IMG/VR virus record: IMGVR_UViG_3300029825_000007 | Span: 1,374 to 65,373 of that record | Source: a virus | DNA length: 64,000 nucleotides | Direction: 5' to 3' (one strand) | Shown: positions 5,102 through 59,432 of the stretch, piece after piece | Layout: each line of letters starts with the position of its first letter | Position numbering within the stretch: the stretch's first letter is position 1 | Notes under the pieces: generated by a model | Databases searched by the model: none | What the model was told of the DNA's origin: nothing | What the model saw: only the letters and a program-made list of their open reading frames with translations | Translations under genes and position numbers: made by a program

Positions 5102-5425
5102 TTATAATCGTATAATCGTGTAATCAAAAAAGCTTGATGCAACTATGGTAACTTTGCTCCAGTTATTGCCATTAAAAGTAAAAGTGATATCATCATAGTC
5201 CGGATTAGATGTGTCAAACGTTACTATTTTATCACCAAATAATGTGTTAACATACATGTTTCTGGGGCCAGCACGTAAAGAGTAATTTACTACACCTGTG
5301 CTTACGCCAAAGTTACCATTGAAACTAGCCATATATAAGAATACATCAGTCTTGATTACACTTTTTGCAATTCTAATCGTAATAGAACGATATGATTCGG
5401 AACTTATTGAAAAAATCTTTTTCGA
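5102..5425 (-). CDS. alternative C-terminal cassette D (possibly also translated from a TTG overlapping the upstream stop)
   Basis: It begins ..IIADL|SKKIFSISS with the same core in frame, and is about 108 aa like the other cassettes. Confidence 0.5.
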   Translation of the reverse strand, partial: SKKIFSISSESYRSITIRIAKSVIKTDVFLYMASFNGNFGVSTGVVNYSLRAGPRNMYVNTLFGDKIVTFDTSNPDYDDITFTFNGNNWSKVTIVASSFFDYTIIRL

Positions 5426-5435
5426 TAAATCGGCG
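5426..5435 (-). repeat. recombination core S3 (CGCCGATTTA on the minus strand)
   Basis: The plus strand reads TAAATCGGCG at 5426-5435, 5 nt downstream of the stop of the 977-aa tail protein. Confidence 0.65.
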
Positions 5436-5439
5436 ATAA

Positions 5440-21383: not shown

Positions 21384-23093
21384 CTAGAATGGTGAATGCA
21401 TAATTGTAGTCTTGACTGTGAAACCGCCCTCTATGAACCGCTCAAGCTGTACCAGACCATCAGGAGAATCATCATGTTCATTCTTGCCAATCTGAACAAA
21501 CATGCACAACTCATCTACAGCCTTGTTGTATTCGTCAGTACGCATATAACGTTTTGTTTCTTGATCATCTTTTCTCTTTAATCTCTGTAATTCATAATTC
21601 GCTTTCAAGAAAATAAATCTCCGTTTGATATCACCAGAATACTGAATGATTTTTGCCATCTTAGCCATAGTGTTTGGGGCTTTTGTACTTGTCACACTGC
21701 ACTTGTATCCATCTTGTTCCAAAAGCTCATCTATCTTATCAGCGTACATATTACCGCCGTTATTAGCTTCAAAATTGATCTGCTGAATTTCATATTCTTT
21801 TATTTTACCTGCGACTAATGGTAGAGTAGTTTCTTTCGGTCCTGCATTGAATATCCAATCAACGATGTAAACGTCACCGTTCTCGTATTCAAACCCAATA
21901 GGCATGGACAATGAATCACCACCACCCCACGCCACATCACACGCACTTACAGCCCTCACAAATCCACTTTCTGGTAATACACCATTAAAGAATCGTAAAT
22001 CATCTTCTGGGAATAACAATCCTTCTCTTACGAATGGTCTCTGCTGGTATTTTGCCATCCATTCATTTTTATCAAGTCGGTCTCTCATATCCAGATAATA
22101 TTTTGTTGAGAATCCGCAGCCATACATATAATCAAAATTTGATTCATCATTTTCATTTAATGCAGGGATTTTTCTAAACCGGTAATTTTTATCATTCTTA
22201 TGCTCTTTTTCAACACGGCCTAATGGGTCTATGACATTCCATCTTGTACCGACCATTAATTCCCTGGCTCCATCTTTTTTACGGTCTACAAGGATATTTA
22301 AATAGTCCTGATACCTATTCTCTAATCGCCTAGGGTTTAAAGATTCTTCACGGTCACGGACTAAATCATCCACATACAAATATCCATCAGGTGATATATC
22401 TACAGCACCTGTCCATGTTCCTTCAATTCCTCGACAAGTCAGAGTTGCAAATCTATCAGGGTCACCCAATGTGATTTCTTTCTTTTCTGCTGATTTATTT
22501 GTAATGTTTCCGACTTCTGGAAATATTTCATGAAACGTGTATTCCTCTGTATTAATCAAATTAAGCATTTCACCGTAAAATCCATCCGCTAATATTCCGG
22601 AGTGTCCGGACATAGCATTGTGGCTGTTAGGACGCTTGCCCAGTATCCATGATAAGAAAAATATACACAGAGTGCTCTTGCCCACGCGGCTTGCAAGAGA
22701 CAATCCATAGAACTCAATTGCCCTATCTTCCAAGTCCTGCAAATCATTTACAACTGTCTTTAATGTTTTCTGTCTCGGCAAGTAAAATCTCTTTCTGGGA
22801 TCTCTGTTCTTCTCCATGTAAATCAAGTATGATTCAAATTTATCCCTTGATTCGAACAGCAAACACTGATAATACAGATCAAGAAACTTTTGGTCTTTTG
22901 TATCACTTGTCAATCTAACAGCCCATTGTTTTACAAAACCAGATACCTTATAGCAATATTCTTTTTCGTTCGGATAATCTTGTTTCATGTACTGTGCAGA
23001 TGATAATAATGCAAGCAGCACTTTATATTCTGGTCTCGTTCCTAATCGCTGTTTTAACGCATTTATCCTTTTTTGATGCTCAATTAACTGCAT
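21384..23093 (-). CDS. terL: terminase large subunit
   Basis: 569 aa. It has a Walker A-like motif (SRVGKST), an acidic Walker B-type motif (LYVDDLV), and the size and position of a terminase with a nuclease C-domain. Confidence 0.8.
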   Translation of the reverse strand: MQLIEHQKRINALKQRLGTRPEYKVLLALLSSAQYMKQDYPNEKEYCYKVSGFVKQWAVRLTSDTKDQKFLDLYYQCLLFESRDKFESYLIYMEKNRDPRKRFYLPRQKTLKTVVNDLQDLEDRAIEFYGLSLASRVGKSTLCIFFLSWILGKRPNSHNAMSGHSGILADGFYGEMLNLINTEEYTFHEIFPEVGNITNKSAEKKEITLGDPDRFATLTCRGIEGTWTGAVDISPDGYLYVDDLVRDREESLNPRRLENRYQDYLNILVDRKKDGARELMVGTRWNVIDPLGRVEKEHKNDKNYRFRKIPALNENDESNFDYMYGCGFSTKYYLDMRDRLDKNEWMAKYQQRPFVREGLLFPEDDLRFFNGVLPESGFVRAVSACDVAWGGGDSLSMPIGFEYENGDVYIVDWIFNAGPKETTLPLVAGKIKEYEIQQINFEANNGGNMYADKIDELLEQDGYKCSVTSTKAPNTMAKMAKIIQYSGDIKRRFIFLKANYELQRLKRKDDQETKRYMRTDEYNKAVDELCMFVQIGKNEHDDSPDGLVQLERFIEGGFTVKTTIMHSPF

Positions 23094-23769: not shown

Positions 23770-23862
23770 TCAGACTGGCAAGATTCGAACTTGCATCTTA
23801 GAGAATATAAGGAGTGGAAGATTGAAAATTCTCTACGCTTTTCCTAATTAAGCTACATTCTG
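23770..23862 (-). tRNA. tRNA-like module 1 with an expanded anticodon arm
   Basis: The minus strand reads CAGAATG-TA-GCTT-AATTAGGA-AAGC-G-TAGAG(AAT)...(ATT)CTCTA-AGAT-GCAAG-TTCGAAT-CTTGC-CAGTCTG-A. The acceptor, D and T arms are canonical, but the anticodon position holds an 8-bp stem with a 21-nt loop. Confidence 0.55.
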
Positions 23863-23951: not shown

Positions 23952-24023
23952 CTGAGATAGTTGGACTCGAACCAACAACTTCCTGATTAACGGCCAGGCG
24001 TTCTACCATTGGACTATATCTCA
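23952..24023 (-). tRNA. tRNA-Asn(GUU)-like
   Basis: TGAGATA-TA-GTCC-AATGGTA-GAAC-G-CCTGG-CCGTTAA-TCAGG-AAGTT-GTTGG-TTCGAGT-CCAAC-TATCTCA-G. 72 nt, no encoded CCA, position 33 is C instead of U, and there is one D-stem mismatch. Confidence 0.65.
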
Positions 24024-24026
24024 TTA

Positions 24027-24565
24027 TTACAAACATGATTAACGTTTCCGCTTATTCCCTATAGATTCAATCATATTCGATCACAGTGATGACAAGTCTG
24101 AACTTTCGGGAGCTACCCTAGGCTTCTTGCCACGGTCGAGCACTGGGAGGATTGACTACCTCCAAATTTCACGCATCATTCAGATTATATGTTTTCCATC
24201 ATATGGTATTTGCTGATTGCGCTACTTTAACATTCCGACTTGTGTTATACTCGCATTTCTGCGATTCACAGCAAAAATAATGGCTTATTGGAAATTCCTG
24301 TCTAGTCCGTAGTCTTCCGCACCACTCACATCAACAGGTTATTCTTCCACAGGAAGCGTCTATTGTGCCACCCACAAGGGAACTATCTTTGATTACTCTA
24401 TAATGATACACTGCATGATTTTGTTGTCGGATTCCCGGCTTCTGTCTGACATTCGCATATCAGTCAAAGAATCATCAAGCAAGTATCCCAACTTGACTTT
24501 TCTCAATTCCATACATCTCGGAGTGGATGTTACCCATTTATGCACCGAGGTAATCATGTTTGTAA
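24027..24565 (-). ncRNA. large structured RNA domain (ROOL/GOLLD-class candidate)
   Basis: There is no credible ORF, and the region is visibly more G+C-rich than its flanks. 24027-24041 (TTACAAACATGATTA) is perfectly complementary to 24551-24565 and closes a domain of about 540 nt. Local hairpins lie at 24146-24163, 24251-24264, 24344-24356 and 24517-24549. The domain is flanked on both sides by tRNA(-like) genes. Confidence 0.5.
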
Positions 24566-24660
24566 AAAGAACAGTAGGGTTTGAACCTACAACTCACTGC
24601 GACTTACATTTATCAACCGATATGCACAGTGTGTCTAACTCCTCTATGAGTTATGTTCCT
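24566..24660 (-). tRNA. tRNA-like module 2 (non-canonical core)
   Basis: It has a 7-bp acceptor stem (AGGAACA/TGTTCTT, one G-U) and a canonical T arm (GTAGG-TTCAAAC-CCTAC). The D position holds a 6-bp stem (TAACTC/GAGTTA). The anticodon position holds a CACTG/CAGTG stem enclosing 27 nt, which includes a TATC-GGTT-GATA hairpin. Confidence 0.45.
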
Positions 24661-26981: not shown

Positions 26982-27000
26982 TGCTTATCTCCTTTTTTAT

Positions 27001-27045
27001 AAAAAATTTCCTCGGTGGGGCGAGATGGTCACAAGACCATGCCCC
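27001..27045 (-). terminator. rho-independent terminator downstream of terS
   Basis: The minus strand reads GGGGC-ATGGTC-TTGT-GACCAT-CTC-GCCCC followed by a T-run (AAATTTTTT). Confidence 0.55.
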
Positions 27046-27206
27046 CTACAGACCCCCTAACCGGGTTAATTGCGACACAAGATAAATATTGATTTTTTTC
27101 GTTGTGATTATGCACAAAAAATATGCAAATTGCTGATTGTCTGATAGGCTATGCTCTACGTTACAATTACAATTGCATACAATAACGGCATATTATCAGA
27201 CTATTG

Positions 27207-27809
27207 TTAAAAATCCGGCTCAATATCGCTGTCCTTGCTCTTATCCTGTGCAATTTCTGCGATCTCTTGATCGGACAACTGCGGTTGCTGTGCATTGCTA
27301 ACCTCTATGCGCTGTGGTGTCTCTACCCATCCGTAGTTAGCTTTTAGGGCAAATATACATCCGATACTGTTTTTTTCGGTCGCTCCATCTGCTAGGCTGG
27401 ACTCGCATTCGCGTTGCCATTTTCTGACCGTTCGAGAGTGTTCTGACTGGGTTCCTTGCCCGTTTGACCGATATTCTCCGGTTGCCCATGTGGTAAAAGT
27501 ATCGTTGCTAATCCCCACTAAAAGACTAAAGTTAAGTAGTGTAGGTCTTTTACCAAATGAATAACACATATCTGTATATATATCCCATATATTATCTAAC
27601 AATTTAATATTACTAGTATCTATTTTGTTATATTTAAACACATGTCTATATATATACTTACACATACCAGTAAATAAAGAACCATTATTATATATATCAT
27701 CTCTATCTCTTAAAGTATCTCTATACTCATCACTGTACTGTATTATTTTATTATTATATATCTCTATTGTATTACCATTATTATCTTTAGACTTTATTGT
27801 ATTAGACAT
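27207..27809 (-). CDS. terS: terminase small subunit
   Basis: 200 aa. The central region (PTLLNFSLLVGISNDTFTTW....SRTVRKWQRECESSLADGA..NSIGCIFALKANYGW) matches the HTH/oligomerisation pattern of Firmicutes phage small terminases. The 5' third is extremely AT-rich. Confidence 0.6.
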   Translation of the reverse strand: MSNTIKSKDNNGNTIEIYNNKIIQYSDEYRDTLRDRDDIYNNGSLFTGMCKYIYRHVFKYNKIDTSNIKLLDNIWDIYTDMCYSFGKRPTLLNFSLLVGISNDTFTTWATGEYRSNGQGTQSEHSRTVRKWQRECESSLADGATEKNSIGCIFALKANYGWVETPQRIEVSNAQQPQLSDQEIAEIAQDKSKDSDIEPDF

Positions 27810-28149
27810 TTATATACCTCATTTATATATTTACTGTATTTATATATTATTACTTTATTTATCTTGTTTATATATACAATACATAAATATAAAAAAATTA
27901 CCTGTAAACTGTATATATATTAACTATATACTGGTCTCAGGTATTATTGTACTGCTCTGTTTATTGGATTAATTATTATTATACCACAATATCTAGTACT
28001 AGTCTAGTCTTAAACACAAGATATTGTAAATTGTTTTGTGATTGATAAATATAAAAGTGATGTATATTTATAACGCTCTTAAATACGTCTAAAATCCATT
28101 TTAAACATTCAGGCAAACAAGTATCCACTATGCATATTATAATTGCAAA

Positions 28150-28470
28150 TAGATATCAAATAGACGCATACAGGCATGAATGATCTGATTGCGATAGATG
28201 TACATGTAAAAATAACCTGCCTGCCAGATCATGTGCGCTTTTGCACTTTAGTGTAGTGACGTGTCGCCGCGTACATCCAGCTACAGCGGGCAAAGCCCGG
28301 TCAACATGGTAGGCGGAAGCCGGTAGGAGGTGCGGTTTTAGCATCTGCTAAGATGCGTTGCACCGTAACCCGATAACCTACAGCAGCCATGGTCTTAATC
28401 TTTTAATCCCTTTGGGTTTGATGTCTTTAGGTTTTGTGTTTTACGTCTTTTATCTTCTACCCCCCCCTAT
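28150..28470. ncRNA. G+C-rich structured non-coding element, copy A (orientation unknown)
   Basis: There are only implausible ORFs. Hairpins include GCATCT-GCTA-AGATGC nested in GGTGC..GCACC (28328-28365), CGGGC-AAA-GCCCG (28287-28299) and GATGTAC (28196-28202)/GTACATC (28271-28277). It is homologous to the reverse complement of 63610-64000. Confidence 0.4.
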
Positions 28471-28703
28471 TTGCAGAAAAAGAAAAGAACCAAAAGAAAA
28501 AGATTTTATTTATAAAACCTTTATTATTATATATTATATATATTCTTTTATAATCTTTTATTTTACTCTTTATATCTCTTCTCTTTATGTTACTTTCTCT
28601 TCTCTCTTTTTCTCTTTTGTTTTTCTATGTCCTTTTCTTAACTTTTTACTTTGTGCAAATATGCCAAATTTAATGCTATAAATTTGTGTAAAATTAATCT
28701 AGA

Positions 28704-28749
28704 ATATTTGTAAATAACCCTTGAAACATATTTGCAAATATGCTATGCT
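28704..28749 (+). promoter_or_regulatory. promoter P1 with two operator copies
   Basis: TTGAAA (28721-28726), 17 nt, then TATGCT. ATATTTGTAAATA lies upstream, and the perfect palindrome ATATTTGCAAATAT (28728-28741) lies in the spacer. Confidence 0.6.
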
Positions 28750-28799
28750 ATATACATAGCAAGGGAACAACAAAACCAAAAAAACGGAGGACAAACAAA

Positions 28800-29204
28800 A
28801 TGAAAAAAAATATAAGCATTGAAGAAATCAAGAATGTAGTTGAAAATACAATCTTCGACTCTTATGGAATCAGGATTGACGAATGTAAGTATGAAGTGGG
28901 AGATATTGCTAATAACTCCCACGAACTTTATCAAGACCCAGATTTTGACGAGGACGGCAACCTTCTTTTTCCAGAAGGTGAAGGCATCTATGAAGGTTTT
29001 TATGATGCCGGAGAAATTGACGGAACCTGTACCATCGGTTTCGACCCCGAGGATGACGAAAGCATCCAAACGGCAATAGATCGTGTCCGCATCTACTGGG
29101 GGAAACATGTAACTGTTGTCGGCGGTGATGGTTATGGATGGGGAAATGACCCCGGTGAGTTAATTATCTCCAATGCGGAGGTATTAGCAGTAATTGAAAA
29201 ATAA
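28800..29204 (+). CDS. small acidic protein, paralogue of 30044..30460
   Basis: ACGGAGGA RBS. 134 aa, rich in Asp/Glu. The C-terminal ..ISNAEVLAVIEK matches ..MEDAKVLDIIF in the paralogue. Confidence 0.55.
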   Translation: MKKNISIEEIKNVVENTIFDSYGIRIDECKYEVGDIANNSHELYQDPDFDEDGNLLFPEGEGIYEGFYDAGEIDGTCTIGFDPEDDESIQTAIDRVRIYWGKHVTVVGGDGYGWGNDPGELIISNAEVLAVIEK

Positions 29205-29231
29205 AAAAGTCAAAAAAGTTGTAACATATGC

Positions 29232-29260
29232 TTGACGAATATTTGTAAATATGCTATGAT
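29232..29260 (+). promoter_or_regulatory. promoter P2 with operator
   Basis: TTGACG, 17 nt, then TATGAT. ATATTTGTAAATAT (29239-29252) lies in the spacer. Confidence 0.6.
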
Positions 29261-29299
29261 AATATCAGATAAAGAACAGAAAGCAAGGAGGAAACAAAA

Positions 29300-29581
29300 A
29301 TGAAAAAAATCAACGATGAAAACATTGAGGAATTGCATACGATTATAGATAGCCTTGAAAAAAACGAACTCGTAGAAATTGACACCATGTATATAGGAGG
29401 GAAAGAAAAAAATAAAGTCAGTGAATTAATTTCATCCCGAGTTATTGTTCCAGTTGATGATGATCTTAAATTTGTAAAACCAGAGCTTTTGTACAGGTAT
29501 TTTACAGGAGATATAATTATGACTGGTAAACACTTATATAAAAAGCTAAGACCGTGGGAATATAGATTCGTAGAAAAGTAA
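29300..29581 (+). CDS. hypothetical protein
   Basis: AAGGAGGAAA RBS. 93 aa. Confidence 0.5.
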   Translation: MKKINDENIEELHTIIDSLEKNELVEIDTMYIGGKEKNKVSELISSRVIVPVDDDLKFVKPELLYRYFTGDIIMTGKHLYKKLRPWEYRFVEK

Positions 29582-29627
29582 TCCGCCCGGAGGTTACGAG
29601 GGCAAGAAACATAGATATGAAAATTAT

Positions 29628-29654
29628 AGCCGGGATAATCTCCCGGCTCTTTTT
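29628..29654. terminator. bidirectional terminator between convergent genes
   Basis: AGCCGGGA-taatc-TCCCGGCT with T-runs on both strands. Confidence 0.65.
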
Positions 29655-29865
29655 ACTGCTCTTCTGCTCCGTTCATGCGTGCAATTTCTTTGTCTACGCA
29701 CATTTCCACAAACTTTGATCTACTCATCCCTCTTAGCTTCGCAGCAGTGTTCCACTGCTCCGCTTTACCGGATAGTTTATCTACTGTAACCACTACCCGA
29801 TCGTATTTTTCCCTTTGAAATTTATTTTGATATTTGTATTGCGTTTCCGCATCTTTGTAAGCCAC
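29653..29865 (-). CDS. ribbon-helix-helix protein, candidate repressor of the P1-P3 regulon
   Basis: GTG start after GGAAGTG. ..YDRVVVTVDKLSGKAEQWNTAAKLRGMSRSKFVEMCVDKEI has an RHH layout. Its own promoter (TTGACA, 17 nt, TAGAAT) is followed by the same 14-mer, found at 29895-29908. Confidence 0.55.
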   Translation of the reverse strand: MAYKDAETQYKYQNKFQREKYDRVVVTVDKLSGKAEQWNTAAKLRGMSRSKFVEMCVDKEIARMNGAEEQ

Positions 29866-29956
29866 GCTGTCACTTCCTTTTTTATCTATCTAATATATTT
29901 ACAAATATTCTATCATATAAATTCATCCCTGTCAAATTTAAAGATAAAAAGTCAAT

Positions 29957-30002
29957 ATATTTGTAAATAACCCTTGACGAATATTTACAAATATGCTATA
30001 AT
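29957..30002 (+). promoter_or_regulatory. promoter P3 with two operator copies
   Basis: TTGACG (29974-29979), 17 nt, then TATAAT (29997-30002). ATATTTGTAAATA lies upstream (29957-29969) and ATATTTACAAATAT lies in the spacer (29981-29994). Confidence 0.65.
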
Positions 30003-30043
30003 AAAGATAGTTAAAGAAGAGATAAAAAACAGGAGGTCACAAA

Positions 30044-30460
30044 ATGACAAGAACAGGAATGATTAAAAAAATTGAGAAGGCAATTGAAAAATACGAATTT
30101 GAATATTCAAATCTCGGTATCAGATTTGAAAATAAAGAAAGGACCATAGGCGAAGAAATTGAGGACTACTCAAAATCTAACGCTGATAGAGATGATGAAA
30201 GAGAATTTCCAGAATATGGGTCCGAAGAATATGAAGAAATGGATGAACTCGATGGAGTATGTGCCTACTATATTGACACATACAGAGATGATGTGGATTT
30301 AGGATTTAACGATCCCAAAAGAGAAAATGACATAGAAAGATTTTATGAAGCTAATCACTGCTACATTTTAGGATGTGATCGCGTATCTAGTAACATGTAT
30401 GCAGAGGATGAGGGAGAAATAATTATGGAGGATGCAAAGGTCCTTGACATAATTTTTTAA
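30044..30460 (+). CDS. small acidic protein, paralogue of 28800..29204
   Basis: AGGAGG RBS. 138 aa with a long Asp/Glu-rich stretch (DRDDEREFPEYGSEEYEEMDELD). Confidence 0.55.
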   Translation: MTRTGMIKKIEKAIEKYEFEYSNLGIRFENKERTIGEEIEDYSKSNADRDDEREFPEYGSEEYEEMDELDGVCAYYIDTYRDDVDLGFNDPKRENDIERFYEANHCYILGCDRVSSNMYAEDEGEIIMEDAKVLDIIF

Positions 30461-30481
30461 AAAACAAATAGTAAATAAGTG

Positions 30482-30510
30482 TTGACGGTTCACACTATGT
30501 GTGATATAAT
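30482..30510 (+). promoter_or_regulatory. promoter P4 (consensus, no operator)
   Basis: TTGACG, 17 nt, then TATAAT, with a TG-containing spacer end. Confidence 0.6.
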
Positions 30511-30543
30511 GTATTTAGATCAAGAGATGAGGAGAAAGGTGTT

Positions 30544-30849
30544 ATGAAGATTATTAGCAGTCAGAAATTCATCAACTACGACATCGTTGATGAGAAAATT
30601 GAAAAATATAATAATCGGAAAAGCATTACCCTCCCGATTATTGATGCCGGGATAACTGACCTCGATGGGAATGATTTATTTATCCTCATTGACGGACACC
30701 ATTCAAAAATTGCAGCGGAAGAATTGGGGATTGAAATCTCATACGAAGAAGTCCCCAATGAGTACGGATTAGTAGGTGACGATTTGTTGATAGCCGCCCA
30801 CGTGGACAGCGATTGGTACTACGTTGACAGTGGGCAACCCGTCTGGTAG
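30544..30849 (+). CDS. ParB N-terminal (ParB/Srx)-like domain protein
   Basis: LFILIDGHHSKIAAEELG resembles the DGHHR box of ParB-like nuclease/NTPase domains. 101 aa. Confidence 0.45.
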   Translation: MKIISSQKFINYDIVDEKIEKYNNRKSITLPIIDAGITDLDGNDLFILIDGHHSKIAAEELGIEISYEEVPNEYGLVGDDLLIAAHVDSDWYYVDSGQPVW

Positions 30850-30933
30850 TTATTTGCTCCCGGCGGTAAAGCGTAGCATCAAAGCGACCGGGTACCTGGC
30901 GAAAGCCAAAATAAAAAACAGGAGGAATTTAAG

Positions 30934-31203
30934 ATGAAAGCAAAAATTTTAGAAACAGGGGAAATCGTAGAACTGCCAAAAATCGCTATTGAAAACGATG
31001 ATTTGGTACAGGGGAATGTAACCAAGGTCGATAACTCTGATTACAACATCGAAATGCCACAAGCCGATTATAACTGGTGGCAGAAAGTCCAGAAAGGTGT
31101 TGATATCGCCGAATCTAACCCAGCTGTGTACGATACCACAGACTATACGTATGAGGATTACCTTATGATCGTAGATGATTTCTCCTCGGATGATGACATC
31201 TAA
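30934..31203 (+). CDS. small acidic protein
   Basis: AGGAGGAA RBS. 89 aa, ending ..DDFSSDDDI. Confidence 0.5.
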   Translation: MKAKILETGEIVELPKIAIENDDLVQGNVTKVDNSDYNIEMPQADYNWWQKVQKGVDIAESNPAVYDTTDYTYEDYLMIVDDFSSDDDI

Positions 31204-31310
31204 AATCAAAGGGGCAGTACCAACTAAAGCACCTGCCCCCAATAGCAACCCAATAACAGGTCACTGTTACAGTATAGCAGTGATCTCCATCAAAAACAAG
31301 GAGAACAAAA

Positions 31311-31865
31311 ATGAAATTAAACAATTTAGTAGAAGATAACAAGGTAACTGTTTATGGATTCCCGGCATTCAAAGGACTTGAAGATTTCTGCAAGGGGACA
31401 TCTGATTCAAGTTTTGTAATATCAACTCTGTCCCCGGCAATCATGCATGATATGGGTATCAATTCGTATTATGCCCCTGTAATCCCTAGAAATAGTCGAT
31501 TCAATACGACTGAAGAAGTTTTAGACGCTAATCTTGATGTCAACCAGGTTTTCGTAATGGAGTTTCCGTCATGGGACTTGATTAATGAGGATAAAATTGT
31601 TATTGTCTCAAGGCACAAGGCGACAATCGACATCCTGCAAGACATGTATCCCGATGCGCCGGTCCTGTCCGGGAACGTGTCCGCATCCGACTTGAAAAAT
31701 TGTCACGTAATCGGTACGTTGCCACCAGCGTTGATTGCAGAGTGCAAGTCGTACAGAGCGGTAACCATCAAGGATTATAACGCCGCTGTGGATGGCGATT
31801 TATCCGCAACGGAAATTAAAGATAGACTAGTTATCAGCGAGCCTATCTCAGTAACCATAAAATAA
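31311..31865 (+). CDS. protein with a C-terminal Csx16 (VVA1548)-like domain
   Basis: IVIVSRHKATIDILQDMYP....HVIGTLPPALIAECKSYRAVTI recalls, from memory, the ..SRH.GA.EW....VIG.LP..LAA.. pattern of that CRISPR-associated family. Confidence 0.35.
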   Translation: MKLNNLVEDNKVTVYGFPAFKGLEDFCKGTSDSSFVISTLSPAIMHDMGINSYYAPVIPRNSRFNTTEEVLDANLDVNQVFVMEFPSWDLINEDKIVIVSRHKATIDILQDMYPDAPVLSGNVSASDLKNCHVIGTLPPALIAECKSYRAVTIKDYNAAVDGDLSATEIKDRLVISEPISVTIK

Positions 31866-31913
31866 TAGCACTCACCTGTCCTATCGGGTATACGGGGAAA
31901 GGAGAATAATAGA

Positions 31914-32438
31914 ATGAATCAATATGACATGTACGCAGATAATGTCTGCTACTTCCCTAGCGATGCAGAAATTTGTAAGTCGTGTCATGGATACGCTTAC
32001 TTGAACCCAGACTTTAACAACATCTGTCCTTATGCAATAAAATGTAGGGAGGATGTTAAAAGAAAGGAAGAAAAAATGAAAGAGCAAAAAAGAAACACAT
32101 TAGAACAATCAGCAAAAGTACTTAGAGAAATTCTAATTAATCGTAAATCTATATTGATGTACGATGTCAACATGAAATTTTCTGGAGGTGTGTCTTTAAC
32201 AATAACTCCACATCAGAATAACGAAATTATTAAAATGGTGCATTGTGACACCATAAAAGATTTGGGTATAATAGTTAACAAAAATGGAAGCTATAGCATA
32301 CTTGTCGATACTATAACCCCAGCGAGGATAACTCTTTTAAAGGTTACAGGGGCTTTCAATGTTTGTGTAACTACACCACAGGGCACCCGCACATTGGAAA
32401 TCGGTACTGATATTACAGTGCCTGGTAAACAAAAATAG
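31914..32438 (+). CDS. hypothetical protein with an N-terminal Cys cluster
   Basis: 174-aa ORF with a GGAGAATAA RBS. Confidence 0.45.
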   Translation: MNQYDMYADNVCYFPSDAEICKSCHGYAYLNPDFNNICPYAIKCREDVKRKEEKMKEQKRNTLEQSAKVLREILINRKSILMYDVNMKFSGGVSLTITPHQNNEIIKMVHCDTIKDLGIIVNKNGSYSILVDTITPARITLLKVTGAFNVCVTTPQGTRTLEIGTDITVPGKQK

Positions 32439-32503
32439 GGTACTCACAAATTTAAATTTTGTATTTGATTTGACCCATGTTAAATGGGAGAAGGAGGAAC
32501 ATT

Positions 32504-33028
32504 ATGACGGGGGTAATTAAGTGTATTAAAGACCATTCTGTAAATTTTCAAGATTCTCTTTACGTGATGGATATCGAGGAAGGGTCTATCTGGTGGGCTA
32601 GTGATACCGCCGATGATGATTTTGGGTTTGTTACAAACGTAAAAGATGGTAGAGAGTTTGATGTCTGGTGTTTCGAAGCCGGTGTACTAGACCCAAGGTT
32701 CTGGGTGTGTGCCCCTCATGCTATGGACAATGACCACAGATGGATTAATGAGCCCATGAATGCACGGTTCGACAGTTTATGCGGCCGTACATATTATGTT
32801 AAGACTGTTGCAGGAGAGGTTCATCGGGTGTTTAATCAAGAAGAAAGAATCTTGATTGATGGTGATGCTTTTAAACACATTTCAATCCCATGGACAGATA
32901 TTGTCTCTTTTATACCGGCACCGATAGAGCCTAAAAACTATGCTTACAAGCTTCGTTTCAAGGAGGAGTTGAACTGTTATGTTAAAGACTATGGCAATGG
33001 AATTGTGAGCTTTAGTCACATTAGGTAA
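32504..33028 (+). CDS. hypothetical protein
   Basis: GAAGGAGGAA RBS upstream of the ATG at 32504 (MTGVIKCIKDH...). Confidence 0.45.
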   Translation: MTGVIKCIKDHSVNFQDSLYVMDIEEGSIWWASDTADDDFGFVTNVKDGREFDVWCFEAGVLDPRFWVCAPHAMDNDHRWINEPMNARFDSLCGRTYYVKTVAGEVHRVFNQEERILIDGDAFKHISIPWTDIVSFIPAPIEPKNYAYKLRFKEELNCYVKDYGNGIVSFSHIR

Positions 33029-33800: not shown

Positions 33801-33945
33801 AATGCCTCCTACAGATATTAAATTTATTTTTTATTCGTAAGATAATTATAGCATAATTTACAGGAAAGGGAAATGGGAGGACAAAATAGAAGGTTGATGT
33901 ATTGCTCAACAAATGGTACGATTGAAAGTAAGGAGGTTAGATGAA

Positions 33946-35211
33946 ATGCCAAAAAAACCAGATATGTCACTTATCGGCAAGAAATATAACATGCTGACAG
34001 TGCTAGAGTTGTCTGATAGACTAAACACTAGCGGAAATCGTATGTACAAGTGCCGTTGCGATTGTGGAAATATCCAGTATGCCACAAAGTGGCAGTTGAT
34101 AAATGGTTATCTGCAAAGTTGCGGATGTATAAAAAAACGACCAAAAAAAGATATTACCAATCAAAAATTCGGAAAACTTACAGCCTTATATCCTGTTGGA
34201 CCGAGCGTTTCAAGTGGCACCCTGTGGCACTGCCGCTGTGACTGTGGTAATGAAGTTGATAAGCCCACAAGCGTATTGGTTTCTGGTGGCGTGAAATCCT
34301 GCGGATGCCTAAGAAAAACACACAACCGCTCAAATTCGTCTGGAACTATAGGCGTAACATTTTATAGTAACAAATGGCGCGCCCATATAACGGTCGATAG
34401 AAAACAATATAATCTGGGAGCATTTTCGGAAAAAGAAGATGCCATAGCGATAAGAAAAGAGGCGGAAAAAATTGATCCTTCTGATTTTGAGGATTGGTAT
34501 AAAAAAATAGATAAAATTTCAAAAAAACAAACTGAAAAGGAAGCCCATATTTCTTGCACGCCCAAAGGTAAAACCATTCGAGAAGGAAACACCTACGGAA
34601 ATATAAAGGTTATAAGCTTATACAGTTATAACCCCAAAACGCACTATTATAAATATAATTGTAAATGTAAAAACTGCGGTTATACTTTTATAGATAGCGC
34701 TCAACGAATTTCTATGCATGCAAGGAATAATAGTTGCCCCGAATGCTTCAAAAGGCAAAAGGTGGCAGAAAGGAATGAAGATGCAAAAAAGTATATTGGC
34801 ATGCGTTACGGTGAATTAGAAGTTGTTGGTTATGCTGGTTTAAAATGTGCATCAAAAAATTTGAGATATGCAATCCCATACATGATATGTAAATGTCATG
34901 AGTGCGGAGACACCTCGGAAATACCGCTTGCAAAGCTAAAAAGCGGACAAACAAGCAAATGTGTGCACTGTGTAAAAAGAGACACATCTGATCACAAAGG
35001 TGTGAGCCTTGATAAAAAATCACATAAATGGAGGGCATATGTAACTTTTCAGAGAAAGCAATATAATTTAGGATTCTACGATAATATAGACGATGCTCTT
35101 TCATCCAGAAGAAAAGGGGATGAAGAAATGTTTGAAAGTTTCGTTGGGTGGTATAAGGAAAACTATCCCACACAATGGGAACAACTGCAAAAGGGGAGGA
35201 AAAATCAATGA
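33946..35211 (+). CDS. zinc-ribbon repeat protein with two AP2-type DNA-binding domains
   Basis: AAGGAGG RBS. It has four C.C.CG....C/SCGC modules and two AP2-like segments (GVTFYSNKWRAHITVDRKQYNLGAFSEKEDAIAIRKEAE and GVSLDKKSHKWRAYVTFQRKQYNLGFYDNIDDALSSRRKGD). Confidence 0.6.
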   Translation: MPKKPDMSLIGKKYNMLTVLELSDRLNTSGNRMYKCRCDCGNIQYATKWQLINGYLQSCGCIKKRPKKDITNQKFGKLTALYPVGPSVSSGTLWHCRCDCGNEVDKPTSVLVSGGVKSCGCLRKTHNRSNSSGTIGVTFYSNKWRAHITVDRKQYNLGAFSEKEDAIAIRKEAEKIDPSDFEDWYKKIDKISKKQTEKEAHISCTPKGKTIREGNTYGNIKVISLYSYNPKTHYYKYNCKCKNCGYTFIDSAQRISMHARNNSCPECFKRQKVAERNEDAKKYIGMRYGELEVVGYAGLKCASKNLRYAIPYMICKCHECGDTSEIPLAKLKSGQTSKCVHCVKRDTSDHKGVSLDKKSHKWRAYVTFQRKQYNLGFYDNIDDALSSRRKGDEEMFESFVGWYKENYPTQWEQLQKGRKNQ

Positions 35212-35605: not shown

Positions 35606-35983
35606 ATGAAATATGAATTATTTTCAAGATTATATAGAGACTGTAAACTGTACAGCAAGCCGACAGGGAAAAATAAAGAGCTGTATATCCATGAAAGGGG
35701 ATATCAAGACTGGATGGATGGGTATAGTCCAGAAAGCATCATAAACACTCTAGAATCAATTTGGTCGCTTTACTGGATAGATATGAGCGATATTAGAAAA
35801 GGTCTGGGATTGACACAATATGAAATGTCTCAGAGGTACTATACATCTAAAAGAACCGTAGAAAGTTGGGAAGCATCCGGGAAAGGTAAAAGAAACATAA
35901 CAGATTCACAAAAAATGCTGATTGCCTATTCAATTTTTGAATCTGAAAGGGATGGAAAGAATGGAAACACTGAAAACACCTAA
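35606..35983 (+). CDS. XRE-like HTH protein
   Basis: It contains GLTQYEMSQRYYTSKRTVESWEAS, an HTH segment. Confidence 0.5.
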   Translation: MKYELFSRLYRDCKLYSKPTGKNKELYIHERGYQDWMDGYSPESIINTLESIWSLYWIDMSDIRKGLGLTQYEMSQRYYTSKRTVESWEASGKGKRNITDSQKMLIAYSIFESERDGKNGNTENT

Positions 35984-36725
35984 GGGAAGACATATAAGAG
36001 AAGGAAACATATATAACAATGTCAGGGTCGTAAGCTTATATAGTTATGACCCAAAAAACAGATACTACAAATATAAATGCGAATGTCTAAATTGTGGTAC
36101 TACTTTTATATCCGGATCCCAAACAATTACAAATTATTCAAAAAACAATATTTGCCCTGAATGTCTTAAAAAGGAAAATGAAATAAAAAGAAAAAAAGAA
36201 TCAGAAAAACATATTGGTGAAAGATACGGATATCTTGAAATTATCGGATATGCAGGATTAAAAAAACTCGATCAAAAACGTTCGGTCATTACTCCATATA
36301 TGATATGCAAGTGTCATAAGTGTGGAAGTACTACAGATATACCTCTTACTAAGCTTGTAAATGGATATGCAAATGAATGTGCAAACTGTAGAAAAAATTA
36401 CCTAGAAAAGGGATGGAAGGCAAATGAAGATTATCACAAAGGTGGTTCTTATATCGGAAGTATTGAAAGCAGAAAGCTAAATAAAAATAACGCATCCGGA
36501 CATAACGGCGTTTCATGGAATAAGAAGCAAAAAAATTGGCGAGCATATATCGTATTTAAAAGAAAGCAATATCATTTAGGGACCTATGAAAAACTAGAAG
36601 ATGCTGTAAAAGCAAGAAAGGAAGGTGAAAAAGAGATATACGGGAGTTTTTTAGCATGGTATAAAGAAACATATCCTGAGTATTGGAAAAGGTTTGAAAG
36701 GAATAAAAAGAAGAAAAATGAATGA
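35961..36725 (+). CDS. zinc-ribbon/AP2-domain protein, paralogue of the C-terminal half of 33946..35211
   Basis: By eye it is about half identical over KGRHIREGNIYNNVRVVSLYSYDPKNRYYKYKCECLNCG.... AP2 segment: GVSWNKKQKNWRAYIVFKRKQYHLGTYEKLEDAVKARKEGE. Confidence 0.6.
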   Translation: METLKTPKGRHIREGNIYNNVRVVSLYSYDPKNRYYKYKCECLNCGTTFISGSQTITNYSKNNICPECLKKENEIKRKKESEKHIGERYGYLEIIGYAGLKKLDQKRSVITPYMICKCHKCGSTTDIPLTKLVNGYANECANCRKNYLEKGWKANEDYHKGGSYIGSIESRKLNKNNASGHNGVSWNKKQKNWRAYIVFKRKQYHLGTYEKLEDAVKARKEGEKEIYGSFLAWYKETYPEYWKRFERNKKKKNE

Positions 36726-36989
36726 TTATTGTAAAGGAATTATATATGCATCTAGTTCTATTGTTCATGATCAGGGGAAAGCCGGTCCTACATAGAAATG
36801 CATGGAGTATTGGATAAGTCAAAAAGAAATGGGAATAAATTTGTAAAAAAGCTGAGGTTACGAATATATGGAAATGAAAATGTATGGAATAAATGGAATG
36901 AAATATTATCAGAAAAGTAAAGGGCTTGTGAAAGGCTCTTTATATTTTGTCATACGTGCAAAAGCTCCTTTCTTACGTGTAAAATATAG

Positions 36990-37170
36990 TAACCATTCCT
37001 ATTTGATACCCCACGTGATACCCTGACGATACCACATGTCTGCAAACCCTTGATATATAAGGTTTTTTGAAAGCTGATGACGAGAATTGAACTCGTACAT
37101 ACAACTCTATTTTTCCAGTAAATTCAAGGCTTTCAAGCTCTTTTGTTTGATACCCTTTGATACCCCAGGT
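36990..37170. promoter_or_regulatory. attP-like region: arm-type repeats plus a tRNA 3'-end fragment
   Basis: There are five copies of (T)GATACC(C) at 37003-37036 and 37148-37170. On the minus strand, 37073-37096 reads ACGAG-TTCAATT-CTCGT-CATCAGC, which is a T arm plus acceptor 3' strand with no 5' half. Confidence 0.55.
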
Positions 37171-37171
37171 A

Positions 37172-38386
37172 TCATTTTATCATAAAATCAGGTATGTTAC
37201 TTACGATATCTGCTCTTTCTAACTCAGATCTTCGATTCCTATGATAATGTTCTTCACTGGTTCCGATATCAGTATGACCTAGCAATCCGATCACCATACG
37301 GTTATCAATGTGATTATCCATTAAGATAGTCCCATATGTTTTTCTGATTTTATGAGGGGATTTAGGGACAATGTTAAGTTTTTTACAGAGCCTTGAAAGC
37401 CTTCTCCTAACAGAATATGATTTAATTCTATCTCCATCACGGTTTGTAAAAATAAACTCTCCAAAAGGATTAATATGCTGCACCATTTTAGAAATCCATC
37501 TATAGTCTTTAGGTATAGCAATGTCCCTGATTCCGGCTTCTGTTTTCGGAAAGTCTTTAACCTCAAAGTGTGTGTTGCCAGAACCATCATTATATCTGGT
37601 CTCTGTTCTCTGCACCTTTACAGATATACCGTTGAAATCTTCATGTTTCAATGCCACTGCTTCCCCTATTCTCATCCCGGTAACAAACATTAATAAAAGG
37701 CATAGATTCTTTTCATCAATGTTATTTTCGAGATATTCAAGCATCAATGGCATTTCTTTTTCGTCAAACACTTCTTCTCTATCATCCTTTATAGTTTTAT
37801 GGAAGTCAGTTTCTGAAAGGTCAAGTTCATCAAAAATATCCTCGATTCTGAAATCTATCAGTTTCCGCTTTTTTGCTCTTTTGAATATTCCTTTTGTAAT
37901 TGTCTTAAGATTAGAAAAGGCTTTTGCGGAAAGCTGATGTTTTGGTATCTGCTCCTCAAGAAAATCTGTTATTTCTTCCGGATGTATAGCCTTTATACGG
38001 GATTTACCCAGTTCACTATAGAAACGGTCAAACATCTGTATATAACGGCTGTGTGAGGACTGAGAGATCTTCTCGAGGGAAAGTCTTCGATCATTCCATT
38101 CACTGAAAACTTCCTGAATGGTTGGATTCTCTTCTTGCTGTTTCCAATAATCCACAAGAACATCTTCTAATGCTTGTTTTGACTTCCGCTTCCGTGGAGT
38201 TCTGCCCGTTTCTGTTGGTATATAAGTGTGCCAATTATTGTCTTTACCATGCCATATCTTATAAGGATGCTTTTCTAGTAATTCCTGTCTATTTTTCATT
38301 TTTATTTTTTTTTGCACGTATGACAGATCTATCATACCATTGTCAACGGCATATTTCAATAATTCACTATTATTCATTTTTGACAT
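37172..38386 (-). CDS. int: tyrosine integrase
   Basis: 404 aa. It has a SAM-like domain and catalytic motifs: GMRIGEAVAL, HKIRKTYGTIL, LLGHTDIGTSEEHYHR. Confidence 0.85.
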   Translation of the reverse strand: MSKMNNSELLKYAVDNGMIDLSYVQKKIKMKNRQELLEKHPYKIWHGKDNNWHTYIPTETGRTPRKRKSKQALEDVLVDYWKQQEENPTIQEVFSEWNDRRLSLEKISQSSHSRYIQMFDRFYSELGKSRIKAIHPEEITDFLEEQIPKHQLSAKAFSNLKTITKGIFKRAKKRKLIDFRIEDIFDELDLSETDFHKTIKDDREEVFDEKEMPLMLEYLENNIDEKNLCLLLMFVTGMRIGEAVALKHEDFNGISVKVQRTETRYNDGSGNTHFEVKDFPKTEAGIRDIAIPKDYRWISKMVQHINPFGEFIFTNRDGDRIKSYSVRRRLSRLCKKLNIVPKSPHKIRKTYGTILMDNHIDNRMVIGLLGHTDIGTSEEHYHRNRRSELERADIVSNIPDFMIK

Positions 38387-58660: not shown

Positions 58661-58701
58661 ATGTCCTCTCTTTCTATTCAATCAGTTCATCAAACGCAGC
58701 T

Positions 58702-59198: not shown

Positions 59199-59218
59199 TA
59201 GACACCTCCTTTACTATT

Positions 59219-59416: not shown

Positions 59417-59432
59417 TTATTTAGGAGCGTAT

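Follow-up and report, generated by a model that had tools for sequence, protein, structure and literature searches.

We analysed a 64-kb stretch of viral DNA (hereafter the window), whose source is a temperate siphovirus-like phage of gut Clostridia. An island of small genes opens a plus-strand accessory block (~28.7-36.7 kb) at its promoter-proximal end, and the stretch just before the island adjoins the small terminase gene. Near-consensus promoters precede these genes, and a gene on the opposite strand is predicted to encode a ribbon-helix-helix (RHH) repressor (Table 1).

Table 1 Features of the island, in window coordinates. O, operator; P, promoter; a dot marks a feature without strand.
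Feature	Position	Strand	Description
O1a	28704..28717	.	ATATTTGTAAATAA, 1 mismatch; ends 3 nt 5′ of the P1 -35
P1	28721..28749	+	TTGAAA-17-TATGCT, extended -10 TG; drives gene 1
O1b	28728-28741		ATATTTGCAAATAT; fills the P1 spacer
Gene 1	28800..29204	+	134 aa, pI 4.05, net charge -22
P2	29232..29260	+	TTGACG-17-TATGAT; drives gene 2
O2	29239-29252		Single copy, within the P2 spacer
Gene 2	29300..29581	+	93 aa, pI 5.7
Terminator-like hairpin	29628..29648	.	Bidirectional, 8 bp (6 GC), between convergent gene 2 and RHH gene
RHH repressor gene (predicted)	29653..29865	-	70 aa, GTG start, pI 9.1, monocistronic
RHH-promoter operator	29895-29908		Covers the final 2 nt of the -10 box plus the start region
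RHH promoter	29895..29935 (with operator)	-	-35 TTGACA 29935-29930, 17 nt, -10 TAGAAT 29912-29907
O3a	29957..29970	.	ATATTTGTAAATAA, 1 mismatch; 3 nt 5′ of the P3 -35, between divergent -35 boxes
P3	29974..30002	+	TTGACG-17-TATAAT (11/12); drives gene 4
O3b	29981-29994		Within the P3 spacer
Gene 4	30044..30460	+	138 aa, pI 4.21, net charge -23; divergent paralogue of gene 1
P4	30482..30510	+	TTGACG-17-TATAAT; without the 14-mer
Gene 5	30544..30849	+	101 aa, pI 4.22, LIDGHHSKIAAEELG motif
Gene 6	30934..31203	+	89 aa, pI 4.05, C-terminus DDFSSDDDI
Gene 7	31311..31865	+	184 aa

The original prediction, made from the letters of the sequence, had described strongly acidic products, two of them paralogues and another ending in DDFSSDDDI. 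All of this was confirmed. Genes 1, 4, 5 and 6 have pI values of 4.05-4.22 and net charges of -13 to -23, values that fall within the lowest 5% for ORFs in the window. Phages commonly encode small acidic proteins. Genes 1 and 4 share 27% identity (E 1e-8), gene 4 being without the NNSH/DxDxDG segment of gene 1, and the acidic terminus belongs to gene 6. A GGAGG ribosome-binding site, together with the N-termini of homologues, backs the start of gene 1 at 28800. Searching family collections, we assigned gene 1 to phrog_18666 and gene 5 to phrog_4807, both function-unknown families, and obtained no PHROGs match for genes 2, 4 and 6; relatives of gene 2 were likewise not detected in Pfam or the PDB. 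Gene 5 is tentatively ParB/Srx-like on weak matches, and gene 6 is only weakly similar, at the level of repeats, to the blades of PLL/PHL propeller lectins. Gene 7, which lies beyond the range of the original prediction, has a sub-threshold match to Csx16/Cas_VVA1548 of the cA4 ring nuclease family (Pfam E 0.02 at 15.5 bits, the cut-off being 25; PADLOC Csx16 E 0.0012) in which only residues 98-162 align. No homologue of gene 7 was found among the viral contigs searched, and genes 1, 5, 6 and 7 are conserved as a block in locus L004.

Save for weak partial PADLOC matches, the cargo matched nothing in PADLOC, Pfam or NCBIfam. Modelling gene 1, we obtained a globular alpha/beta fold (pLDDT 90) that matched no PDB structure with an E-value below 0.5, Ocr, ArdA and Acr structures included, and a phmmer search of the PDB returned nothing meaningful for its sequence. 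The comparison with anti-defence proteins proposed in the original prediction yielded no match by sequence (PADLOC, Pfam, NCBIfam, PHROGs) or by the gene-1 fold. The suggested DNA mimicry finds no backing either, gene 1 having no sequence or fold similarity to Ocr, ArdA or AcrIIA2/4-type mimics.

Scanning both strands of the 64 kb for promoters (at least 10/12 matches, 17-nt spacer, extended -10 TG), we found only 8 sites, 4 of which fall in 29232-30482. The four near-consensus sigma-A promoters reported previously at 28721, 29232, 29974 and 30482 all proved to have 17-nt spacers. P1, P2 and P3 are copies of one ~50-bp cassette. Allowing at most one mismatch, the 14-mer ATATTTRYAAATAT occurs exactly 6 times in the window, as had been claimed, with 0.33 copies expected and 6 copies reached by 0/100 shuffles. 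All six copies lie at 28704-29994, a 1.3-kb interval surrounding the RHH gene, and none elsewhere in the 64 kb; those at 28704 and 29957 carry one mismatch each. In full form the operator reads (C)ATATTTG-CAAATAT(G), a palindrome of 14-16 bp. O1b, O2 and O3b fill the -35/-10 spacers and contribute the TG of the extended -10. In all, there are two operators at each of P1 and P3, a single one at P2, and one covering the start site of the RHH promoter. This is an Aca-type layout, with six inverted-repeat sites on the regulator's own and neighbouring promoters, four in all. The paired operators lie 24 bp apart, a non-integral number of helical turns, which counts against the model set out below.

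The original prediction had located these sites correctly, apart from some end coordinates that were off by one. Their placement in the spacer or just upstream of the -35 was upheld at P1-P3, as was the copy at the -10 of the divergent RHH gene, where it overlaps the final 2 nt of the box and the start region. The claim of an operator common to four consensus promoters did not survive, as the 14-mer is present at P1-P3 and the RHH promoter and absent from P4. The spacer of P4 has its own perfect palindrome, TCACACTATGTGTGA (TCACAC-TAT-GTGTGA, 30490-30504), and the upstream operator position holds only a decayed half-site. With the 14-mer missing and a different palindrome in its place, P4 probably lies outside the RHH regulon, in which it had been included.

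We also examined the 70-aa product of the minus-strand gene. Its predicted layout comprises an N-terminal helix, the ribbon RVVVTV and two helices. In the AF2 model (pLDDT 82), residues 21-29 (RVVVTVD) are extended and residues 34-44 and 49-69 are helical; the ribbon is shown as coil rather than strand since the model is of a monomer. Performing Foldseek searches, we find that most matches, the top three among them, are RHH proteins (MazE-mt10/Rv0298, Arc, CopG, FitA and AtaR, the top ones being antitoxins) with rmsd 1.7-2.5 Å over 40-51 columns; owing to the short length of the protein, the E-values are weak (0.17 or higher). The family profile matched the Arc repressor best in the PDB (E 0.012), and Arc structures 1b28, 1myl and 1baz were among the profile and Foldseek matches. 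By itself the protein has no Pfam match; among 16 family members, TacA1 is matched in 7/16 and NikA-like in 4/16, and others match RHH_1, RHH_5, RepB-RCR_reg, Arc and DUF6290. Judged by these profiles and the model, the protein is a member of the ribbon-helix-helix (Arc/MetJ/CopG) superfamily with a strand-helix-helix core of ~45 residues. Its relatives are 61-83 aa long, make up at least 1,462 clusters at 90% identity, and have LPD18 and LPD29 proteins among their neighbours. An RHH antitoxin of a type II toxin-antitoxin pair is not supported, as the gene is monocistronic, adjoins no co-transcribed toxin, and is followed by the terminator at 29628-29648 and then by a convergent gene.

Comparing loci, we noticed that the ribbon and the palindrome change together. 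The ribbon RVVVTV pairs with ATATTTRYAAATAT in the window and L006-L009 only. RITVMA (proteins P0094, P0127, P0078 and P0150) pairs with CATAGTTTAAATATG in L021-L028 and L032-L033, and RINLTV (P0072) with three copies of CATTGYRCAATG in L029-L031. At every locus the site sits in the spacer and/or just 5′ of the -35 of a consensus promoter adjoining the RHH gene. Since both partners change while the promoter position stays constant, this is strong comparative evidence for a repressor-operator pairing. As indirect evidence, the covariation suggests that RHH dimers may bind the repeated sites through their paired ribbons. Loci without the RHH gene have no 14-mer and carry other palindromes, together with an HTH_26 gene. 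In L004, for instance, a 90% identical gene 1 comes with a regulator of the HTH_26 type, and both operator positions are taken by TACACG-N6-CGTGTA sites; homology to the window begins exactly at the -10. Part of the operator repetition could be traceable to promoter duplication, because P1-P3 share the ~50-bp cassette; the separate site on the RHH promoter and the cross-locus covariation speak against duplication as the sole source. One RHH repressor gating the whole set and itself, as originally predicted, is thus supported by the covariation for P1-P3 and its own promoter and not for P4.

The gene-1 domain was found in other contexts as well. It occupies approximately residues 1292-1403 of a 2,380-aa ORF in L020 that also contains LPD5, LPD1, PBECR5 and LPD3, and it lies inside an ORF of at least 2,579 aa in L016. 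The full-length domain alignment retains G23, R25, E72, G75, Y99, D117 and E120, and by this alignment gene 1 is a stand-alone form of a polyvalent-protein domain. A gene-1 homologue in an RHH-headed operon (L021) accompanies a truncated homologue of the Cas8c N-terminus (Pfam E 1.7e-19), and another is followed by an orphan Dam-like methylase with DUF4942. Homologues are likewise found at the ends of prophages. These genomic contexts favour a counter-defence or establishment role for the cargo. The anti-defence function proposed earlier thus gains from the polyvalent-protein, methylase and Cas8c-fragment contexts and lacks a match to any known anti-defence protein.

Turning to the phage as a whole, we located its single tyrosine integrase in the window at 37172-38386 and four TGATACCC repeats, candidate arm sites, at 37004-37165, just past the integrase stop codon. 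The attP is thus likely to lie at about 37.0-37.2 kb; it had been placed next to the island, and the integrase and candidate arm sites are ~5.8 kb beyond the island end. A CI/Cro switch occupies 59.0-59.8 kb (CI 59400-59789), with operators unrelated to the 14-mer, and a recognisable antirepressor (Bro-N/ORF6C, 57875-58681) adjoins Cro. From this arrangement, the putative RHH circuit is not the main switch of the phage.

Combining the site positions, the RHH fold, the ribbon-operator covariation and the genomic contexts, we propose, with a probability of about 60%, that P1-P3 and the autoregulated RHH repressor constitute an accessory regulon that silences early counter-defence or establishment genes; binding, repression, timing and cargo function are what we infer here. 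RHH dimers would occupy the operators in the -35/-10 spacers, cover the extended -10 TG and exclude RNA polymerase. Repression would be tighter at P1 and P3 because of the second operator 24 bp upstream, and the operator over the start site of the RHH promoter would give negative autoregulation and a steady RHH level. Upon DNA entry into a repressor-free cell, a burst of genes 1, 2 and 4 would be followed by self-shut-off, and in the lysogen these genes would be silent. Their products would most likely be early counter-defence or establishment proteins, and P4 with genes 5-7 would form a neighbouring unit outside the control of the 14-mer operator. The burst on entry, already suggested in the original prediction, follows from such a repressor circuit, and the same behaviour is experimental for Reg576 (PMC6294495).

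Two other readings of the cargo appear about equally improbable to us. The first takes the RHH protein as a maintenance repressor of the Mnt/Arc type, as in P22 immI, and genes 1, 2 and 4 as antirepressors or inter-phage conflict proteins that would inactivate CI-type repressors of this phage or of resident prophages. Arc is indeed the best PDB match of the family profile, the Pant/Pmnt pair is likewise built from an operator in a strong-promoter spacer and a divergent repressor promoter, other phages are known to encode small acidic antirepressors, and a gene-1 locus (L010) lies near an AntA/AntB protein. Against it, none of the island proteins is similar to Ant, Bro or KilAC, the recognisable antirepressor of this phage sits elsewhere, by Cro, and the gene-1 domain keeps the company of a methylase and a Cas8c fragment and is found in polyvalent proteins of the early-invasion kind (PMC5512222). 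The second reading regards the cargo as morons for lysogenic conversion or superinfection exclusion, which would shield the lysogen, and has the RHH protein tune their level rather than act as an off-switch. Homologues at prophage ends, the classic moron position, as well as independent promoters and a terminator would suit morons, but core-spacer operators in near-consensus promoters under an autoregulated repressor predict silence in the lysogen, genes 1, 2, 4, 5 and 6 are small with 1, 4, 5 and 6 strongly acidic, and no PADLOC defence model was matched beyond the weak partial matches. Slightly less probable still is that another factor (a host global regulator or other phage protein) binds the palindromes, or that these were merely inherited in the duplicated cassette, the RHH protein being an orphan antitoxin or a partition/replication regulator: the cassette copies and the antitoxin-type matches (TacA1, DUF6290, the top Foldseek matches) fit this, yet the RHH gene is monocistronic, terminator-ended and without a toxin partner, the RHH promoter carries a sixth site that is not part of the cassette, the operator tracks the ribbon across six independent locus groups, RHH-less loci carry HTH_26-associated palindromes in place of the 14-mer, and to our knowledge the 14-mer resembles none of the Cheo/LexA, CodY, cre or Rex boxes.

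Should the RHH-operator pairing hold, early, self-limiting counter-defence operons in gut Firmicute phages could be found by sequence, from a small RHH gene accompanied by a palindrome in the spacer of a consensus promoter; as far as we know, known Acr/Aca baits do poorly in these phages. The three ribbon types, with three operators in the same promoter geometry, offer a natural data set for RHH recognition rules. A bolder reading, which we entertain only tentatively and consider rather doubtful, is that the RHH family is a very large Aca-like family in gut-Clostridia phages whose operators mark hundreds of counter-defence operons, and that the gene 1/gene 4 domain represents a novel class of inhibitors of defence, acting for instance on type I-C CRISPR-Cas or restriction. 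On this reading, the ribbon sequence and its cognate palindrome would directly reveal the specificity of an RHH protein.

The original prediction could name nothing like this regulatory logic, but P22 Arc/Mnt, Aca14 and Reg576 are close precedents. As a regulatory principle the switch design is already known; the RHH family and the cargo are uncharacterised. In P22 immI, two cooperating RHH proteins, Arc and Mnt, control Pant/Pmnt, the cargo is the Ant antirepressor, and the 21-bp Arc operator comprises two subsites. Shared with the window are a small RHH repressor in a temperate phage, an operator in a strong-promoter core, a divergent promoter pair and independence from the CI/Cro switch, whereas the Ant cargo, the cooperation of two RHH proteins and the two-subsite operator have no counterpart here.

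Aca14 (WP_005725436.1/HDR1349883.1) is a 66-aa RHH anti-CRISPR-associated repressor that was shown experimentally to repress its own and a neighbouring operon via an AT-rich inverted repeat in the promoter core, and its cargo includes the co-opted CRISPR parts Csx20 and a Cas5f homologue (PMC13551039). By description it resembles our RHH protein in size (66 versus 70 aa), in an extra helix beyond the RHH core, in the AT-rich inverted repeat in the promoter core and, on our prediction, in targeting its own and a neighbouring operon; its CRISPR-derived cargo may be compared with the Cas8c N-terminal fragment in L021 and the weakly Csx16-like gene 7. It differs in gene arrangement, aca14 being part of the acr operon and the RHH gene being divergent and monocistronic, and in that its repeat overlaps the -10 whereas our operator fills the spacer with a second copy 5′ of the -35; the island is also without a known acr gene.

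Reg576 is an RHH repressor of establishment genes in the Bacillus plasmid p576 and clade II pLS20-family plasmids (PMC6294495, PMC8708921), with an experimentally shown transient burst after DNA entry (PMC6294495). It too belongs to a Firmicute mobile element on which several similar promoter cassettes drive small, mostly function-unknown genes (its set also has anti-restriction genes), with one operator on its own promoter and two on strong targets (one at our P2), and with operons shuffled between elements. The element is a conjugative plasmid rather than a phage, and the Reg576 site is a direct repeat, TTATCCC, 5′ of the -35 and 5′ of the ribosome-binding site rather than a spacer palindrome. 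The RHH profile returned no chain named Reg576 from the PDB copy searched at E-values up to 10, and a tblastn search against plasmids returned nothing.

For the cargo, the closest parallel is the LPD domains of polyvalent proteins, in which the same domain occurs in giant proteins and as a solo gene (PMC5512222). Although no Pfam LPD model matches gene 1, its domain behaves in the same manner, being present inside giant multi-domain proteins and solo in phage accessory regions. Gene 1 makes a well-defined target: it encodes 134 aa, its confident model has no solved relative, and its domain occurs in polyvalent proteins and beside a methylase and a Cas8c fragment.

The window holds all, or a large part, of the genome of a temperate siphovirus-like phage, whose main lysis-lysogeny switch lies at 59001-59789. 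The small-gene island (genes 1 and 2, the RHH gene and genes 4-6, with gene 7 just beyond) opens a plus-strand block at 28.8-36.7 kb, with the small terminase gene (divergent) on one side and the integrase gene (convergent) on the other. MAGs of Eubacterium, Roseburia, Lactonifactor and further gut Clostridia contain relatives of the island genes. Searching isolated phages for DNA similarity to 27000-33000, we found nothing beyond a 95-bp promoter-like match in Streptococcus phage Cp-7. Within the minus-strand block, the stretch from the large terminase gene to a small resolvase gene includes a full-length ROOL RNA (RF03087, 345 bits; gathering score 99) that directly adjoins tRNA-Asn, with tRNA-Glu nearby. 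Between the small terminase gene and the island, where the intergenic DNA is otherwise AT-rich, lies a GC-rich patch (plus-strand folding z = -2.1; no Rfam match at E up to 1), possibly a structured RNA or packaging site. Downstream of CI, a plus-strand block encodes a protein with a sub-threshold match to the Lar (restriction alleviation) zinc ribbon (E 2.7e-4).

Positions of the island features and of the surrounding phage features in the window
Feature	Position	Strand	Remarks
SPP1-type portal	19118-20701	-	
Large terminase	21384-23093	-	
tRNA-Glu	23770-23862	-	
tRNA-Asn	23952-24023	-	
ROOL RNA	24022-24573	-	
Small terminase	27207-27809	-	
GC-rich patch	28230-28400		
P1	28721	+	two operators: first ends 3 nt upstream of -35; second fills spacer and supplies extended -10 TG
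Gene 1	28800-29204	+	
P2	29232	+	one operator, in spacer alone
Gene 2	29300-29581	+	
Terminator-like hairpin	29628-29648	both	between gene 2 and RHH gene
RHH gene	29653-29865	-	70 aa
RHH promoter		-	one operator, over last two -10 bases and start region
P3	29974	+	two operators, arranged as at P1; 24 bp centre to centre
Gene 4	30044-30460	+	
P4	30482	+	no operator; other perfect palindrome TCACACTATGTGTGA in spacer (30490-30504); upstream site reduced to right half
Gene 5	30544-30849	+	101 aa
Gene 6	30934-31203	+	
Gene 7	31311-31865	+	184 aa
AP2-like pair	33913-35211, 35922-36725	+	
TGATACCC and CGATACCA repeats	36980-37170		four TGATACCC at 37004-37165; one CGATACCA
Tyrosine integrase	37172-38386		
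DnaB-like helicase and RecT	between 39 and 56 kb	-	
65-aa ORF	59001-59198		putative Cro by position; divergent from HTH_19 gene
Bro-N/ORF6C antirepressor			next after Cro-position ORF
CI-like HTH_19 repressor	59400-59789		opposite direction to 65-aa ORF
Lar-like protein	62899-63408	+	169 aa

The original prediction placed an RHH repressor inside the island, and we consider the assignment to RHH sound. The 70-aa protein alone matched no Pfam model, and a word-indexed search returned only the protein itself. A full HMMER scan recovered 19 remote relatives, and the profile built from them reached at least 1,462 clusters of proteins of 61-83 aa. Family members match the RHH-clan models TacA1, NikA-like, DUF6290, RepB-RCR_reg, RHH_5, RHH_1 and Arc, and the best PDB match of the family profile is the Arc repressor (E 0.012). 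In agreement, the AF2 model (pLDDT 82) begins with a helix, followed by an extended RVVVTVD stretch and two further helices, and its Foldseek neighbours are for the most part RHH proteins. Phmmer against PDB returned nothing, tblastn against plasmid and phage collections gave no match, and no relatives were found in viral contigs. A 77-aa RHH-looking protein at one database locus was rejected as a family member (hhalign probability 1.8%).

As predicted, the 14-mer ATATTTRYAAATAT (at most one mismatch) occurs six times at promoters, all within 28704-29994, against an expected count of 0.33 in the window; none of 100 shuffles reached six. The promoter scan returned four plus-strand promoters and one minus-strand promoter for the 70-aa gene. 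Under a strict filter (at least 10/12, 17-nt spacer, extended -10 TG), just eight sites remain on both strands of the whole window, four of them within 29232-30482; P1, at 9/12, falls below it. All four plus-strand promoters had been thought to share the operator. This stands for P1-P3, and extends to the repressor's own promoter, but P4 has no 14-mer, so the set is corrected to three promoters plus the repressor's own. The P4 palindrome (TCACAC-TAT-GTGTGA) occurs once in the window. At another locus, the gene-1 promoter spacer has a comparable TCAC-N6-GTGA site, next to a putatively HTH-like ORF. In an exact scan, no viral contig matched the promoter-operator cassette. Scanning metagenome contigs for ATATTTRYAAATATGCTAT, we obtained at least 120 single matches from unrelated environments; among the matches listed, none had the RHH gene, any island gene or two sites, and we regard them as chance occurrences of an AT-rich 19-mer.

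We compared six locus groups with family members: the window together with L006, a locus sharing its operator, and five further groups. All six have a palindrome in the spacer of a consensus promoter adjoining the RHH gene, often with another copy a short way before the -35. Across the compared loci the palindrome follows the ribbon, the predicted DNA-reading segment of RHH, with three ribbon types and three operators. RVVVTV goes with ATATTTRYAAATAT (the window and near-identical copies only), RITVMA with CATAGTTTAAATATG (four proteins at ten loci, with differing cargo) and RINLTV with three copies of CATTGYRCAATG (loci L029-L031); none of these loci had the operator of another ribbon type. 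L004, a locus with a 90% identical gene 1, presents the converse: the RHH gene is absent, a divergent HTH_26 gene stands instead, and TACACG-N6-CGTGTA sites occupy the same two promoter positions as the window operators. Repeats of approximately TCTGAATAAATCGC lie in the CI/Cro intergenic region and are unrelated to the 14-mer.

Local RHH-operator pairing best explains the ribbon tracking, the L004 converse and the unrelated CI/Cro repeats taken together. Judging from these sequence comparisons, we consider it quite likely that RHH, by binding the palindrome, gates P1-P3 and its own promoter. The pairing results argue against two other origins of the repeated sites, recognition by a host factor and mere duplication of a cassette. 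We rejected the 14-mer as a CI operator because the repeats of the CI/Cro region differ. A toxin-antitoxin reading of the RHH gene was dropped, since there is no partner gene.

Performing blastn between the window and L004, we find that the homology starts exactly at the P1 -10 and picks up again inside the P4 spacer (breakpoints at window 28749 and 30497 versus L004 7953 and 8407). Therefore, 29198-30496 (gene 2, RHH and gene 4 with their promoters) is an indel, and regulatory parts were swapped as modules. Promoter cores appear, from such alignments, to be junctions for the exchange of regulator and cargo modules. Other gene-1 loci have additional palindromes or repeats within the promoter spacer. 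The gene-9 homologue of L004 is inverted. The gene-1 leader (A/C)CATAGCAAGGA is conserved after the -10 (window 28755-28775; L001, L004, L013, L017 and L018), irrespective of the regulator and operator type, and may be a 5′ UTR element of the cargo gene.

Under the RHH-operator pairing, a repressor sitting on the spacer and covering the extended -10 would exclude RNA polymerase. With two sites at P1 and P3 and one at the repressor promoter, the targets would be more tightly repressed than the repressor. In a repressor-free cell, P1-P3 and the RHH promoter of the incoming DNA would all fire at once and later shut down.

Turning to the cargo, genes 1 and 4 are paralogous (27% identity, E 1e-8) and genes 1, 4, 5 and 6 lie within the most acidic 5% of window ORFs, which bears out the expected paralogy and acidity of the products. 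Gene 1 has no Pfam model, belongs to PHROG 18666, a family of unknown function, and has a narrow family of 35 clusters. Its AF2 model, of high confidence (pLDDT 90), had no neighbour with E < 0.5 among PDB structures, and only two uncharacterised viral proteins matched in BFVD. When ten sequences, from solo genes as well as from segments of polyvalent proteins, are aligned, G23, R25, E72, G75, Y99, D117, E120, A126 and V128 are invariant and cysteine 77 is not conserved. The DxDxDG-like DFDEDG loop, which is missing from gene 4, could be a Ca-binding motif. No gene-4 relatives were found in viral contigs.

The entire gene-1 domain also lies inside a giant ORF of 2,380 aa with LPD5, LPD1, PBECR5 and LPD3, and inside a second of at least 2,579 aa; gene 1 is thus the free-standing form of a domain of polyvalent proteins. 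LPD18, LPD29 and pieces of methylase-type polyvalent profiles are among the neighbours of RHH relatives. At prophage ends, gene-1 homologues adjoin large serine recombinase or lysis genes. At another prophage end (L021), a gene-1 homologue shares an RHH-headed operon with a 245-aa protein (5568-6305, +) matching the first 225 positions of the Cas8c (Cas_Csd1) Pfam model (E 1.7e-19), which may be a Cas-derived decoy or anti-CRISPR. Another homologue has a Dam-like methylase with DUF4942 downstream. At L017, the ORFs downstream (5294-7076, -) resemble Cas1 and Cas4 by eye, which we take as a sign that this copy may adjoin a host CRISPR-Cas locus. Iyer et al. tied the class of polyvalent-protein domains to the early invasion phase (PMC5512222).

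Gene 5 carries a LIDGHHSKIAAEELG motif (DGHH), like the DGHHR motif of the ParB/sulfiredoxin fold, and weakly matches ParB/Srx-type proteins, SerK (NCBIfam, E 3.7e-4) and PHROG 4807 (unknown function); a ThsA macro-domain match (PADLOC, E 0.0035) was discarded as short and partial. Gene 6 resembles Photorhabdus PLL/PHL propeller lectins at the repeat level (E 4e-6), just a lead because this score sums several weak blade-repeat alignments of individual E of at least 1. Gene 7, which at L004 is conserved as a block together with genes 1, 5 and 6, has sub-threshold matches to Csx16/Cas_VVA1548 over residues 98-162; Csx16 has been proven to be a cA4 ring nuclease (PMC12409355). Gene 2 had no relatives in any library searched. 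Phmmer against PDB gave noise only for genes 1, 2, 5 and 7, and viral contigs yielded no relatives of genes 5 and 7.

The TGATACCC repeats directly follow the integrase stop codon, as candidate integrase arm sites, and with CGATACCA they are probably attP arm-type sites. The accessory block would then end at the prophage boundary. The island itself, expected next to attP, is about 5.8 kb short of these candidate sites. The last genes of the block, before the putative attP, are a pair with sub-threshold AP2-domain matches (28.5 and 28.4 bits; cut-off 33.3), of which the first encodes a cysteine-rich protein.

In summary, the feature is real and well organised, and as cargo it carries a domain family, also present in polyvalent proteins, with no known function. 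The gene contexts give coherent support for a counter-defence or establishment role, and we assign counter-defence to the cargo tentatively; nothing found points specifically to the DNA mimicry first proposed. For the RHH-gated regulation and counter-defence cargo combined, we estimate a probability of roughly 0.6.

The original prediction could name nothing like this regulatory logic. P22 Arc/Mnt is the classical phage precedent for RHH-gated logic. Aca14, to which we liken the window RHH by its published description, is an RHH repressor of 66 aa; it binds inverted repeats rich in AT and represses its own operon as well as an adjacent anti-defence one (PMC13551039). The Reg576 system of the Bacillus plasmid p576 has demonstrated fire-then-shut-down behaviour (PMC6294495, PMC8708921). 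The regulatory logic is therefore already known. The island differs in details: the window repressor gene is divergent and monocistronic and the palindromic sites lie inside the promoter spacer; no similarity was detected between its repressor family and Reg576. The island is best classed as an uncharacterised case of a known type, the self-limiting accessory or anti-defence regulon that an RHH protein gates on mobile elements, and it shares with Reg576 the identical one-versus-two operator asymmetry and the reuse and shuffling of promoter cassettes (PMC6294495, PMC8708921).
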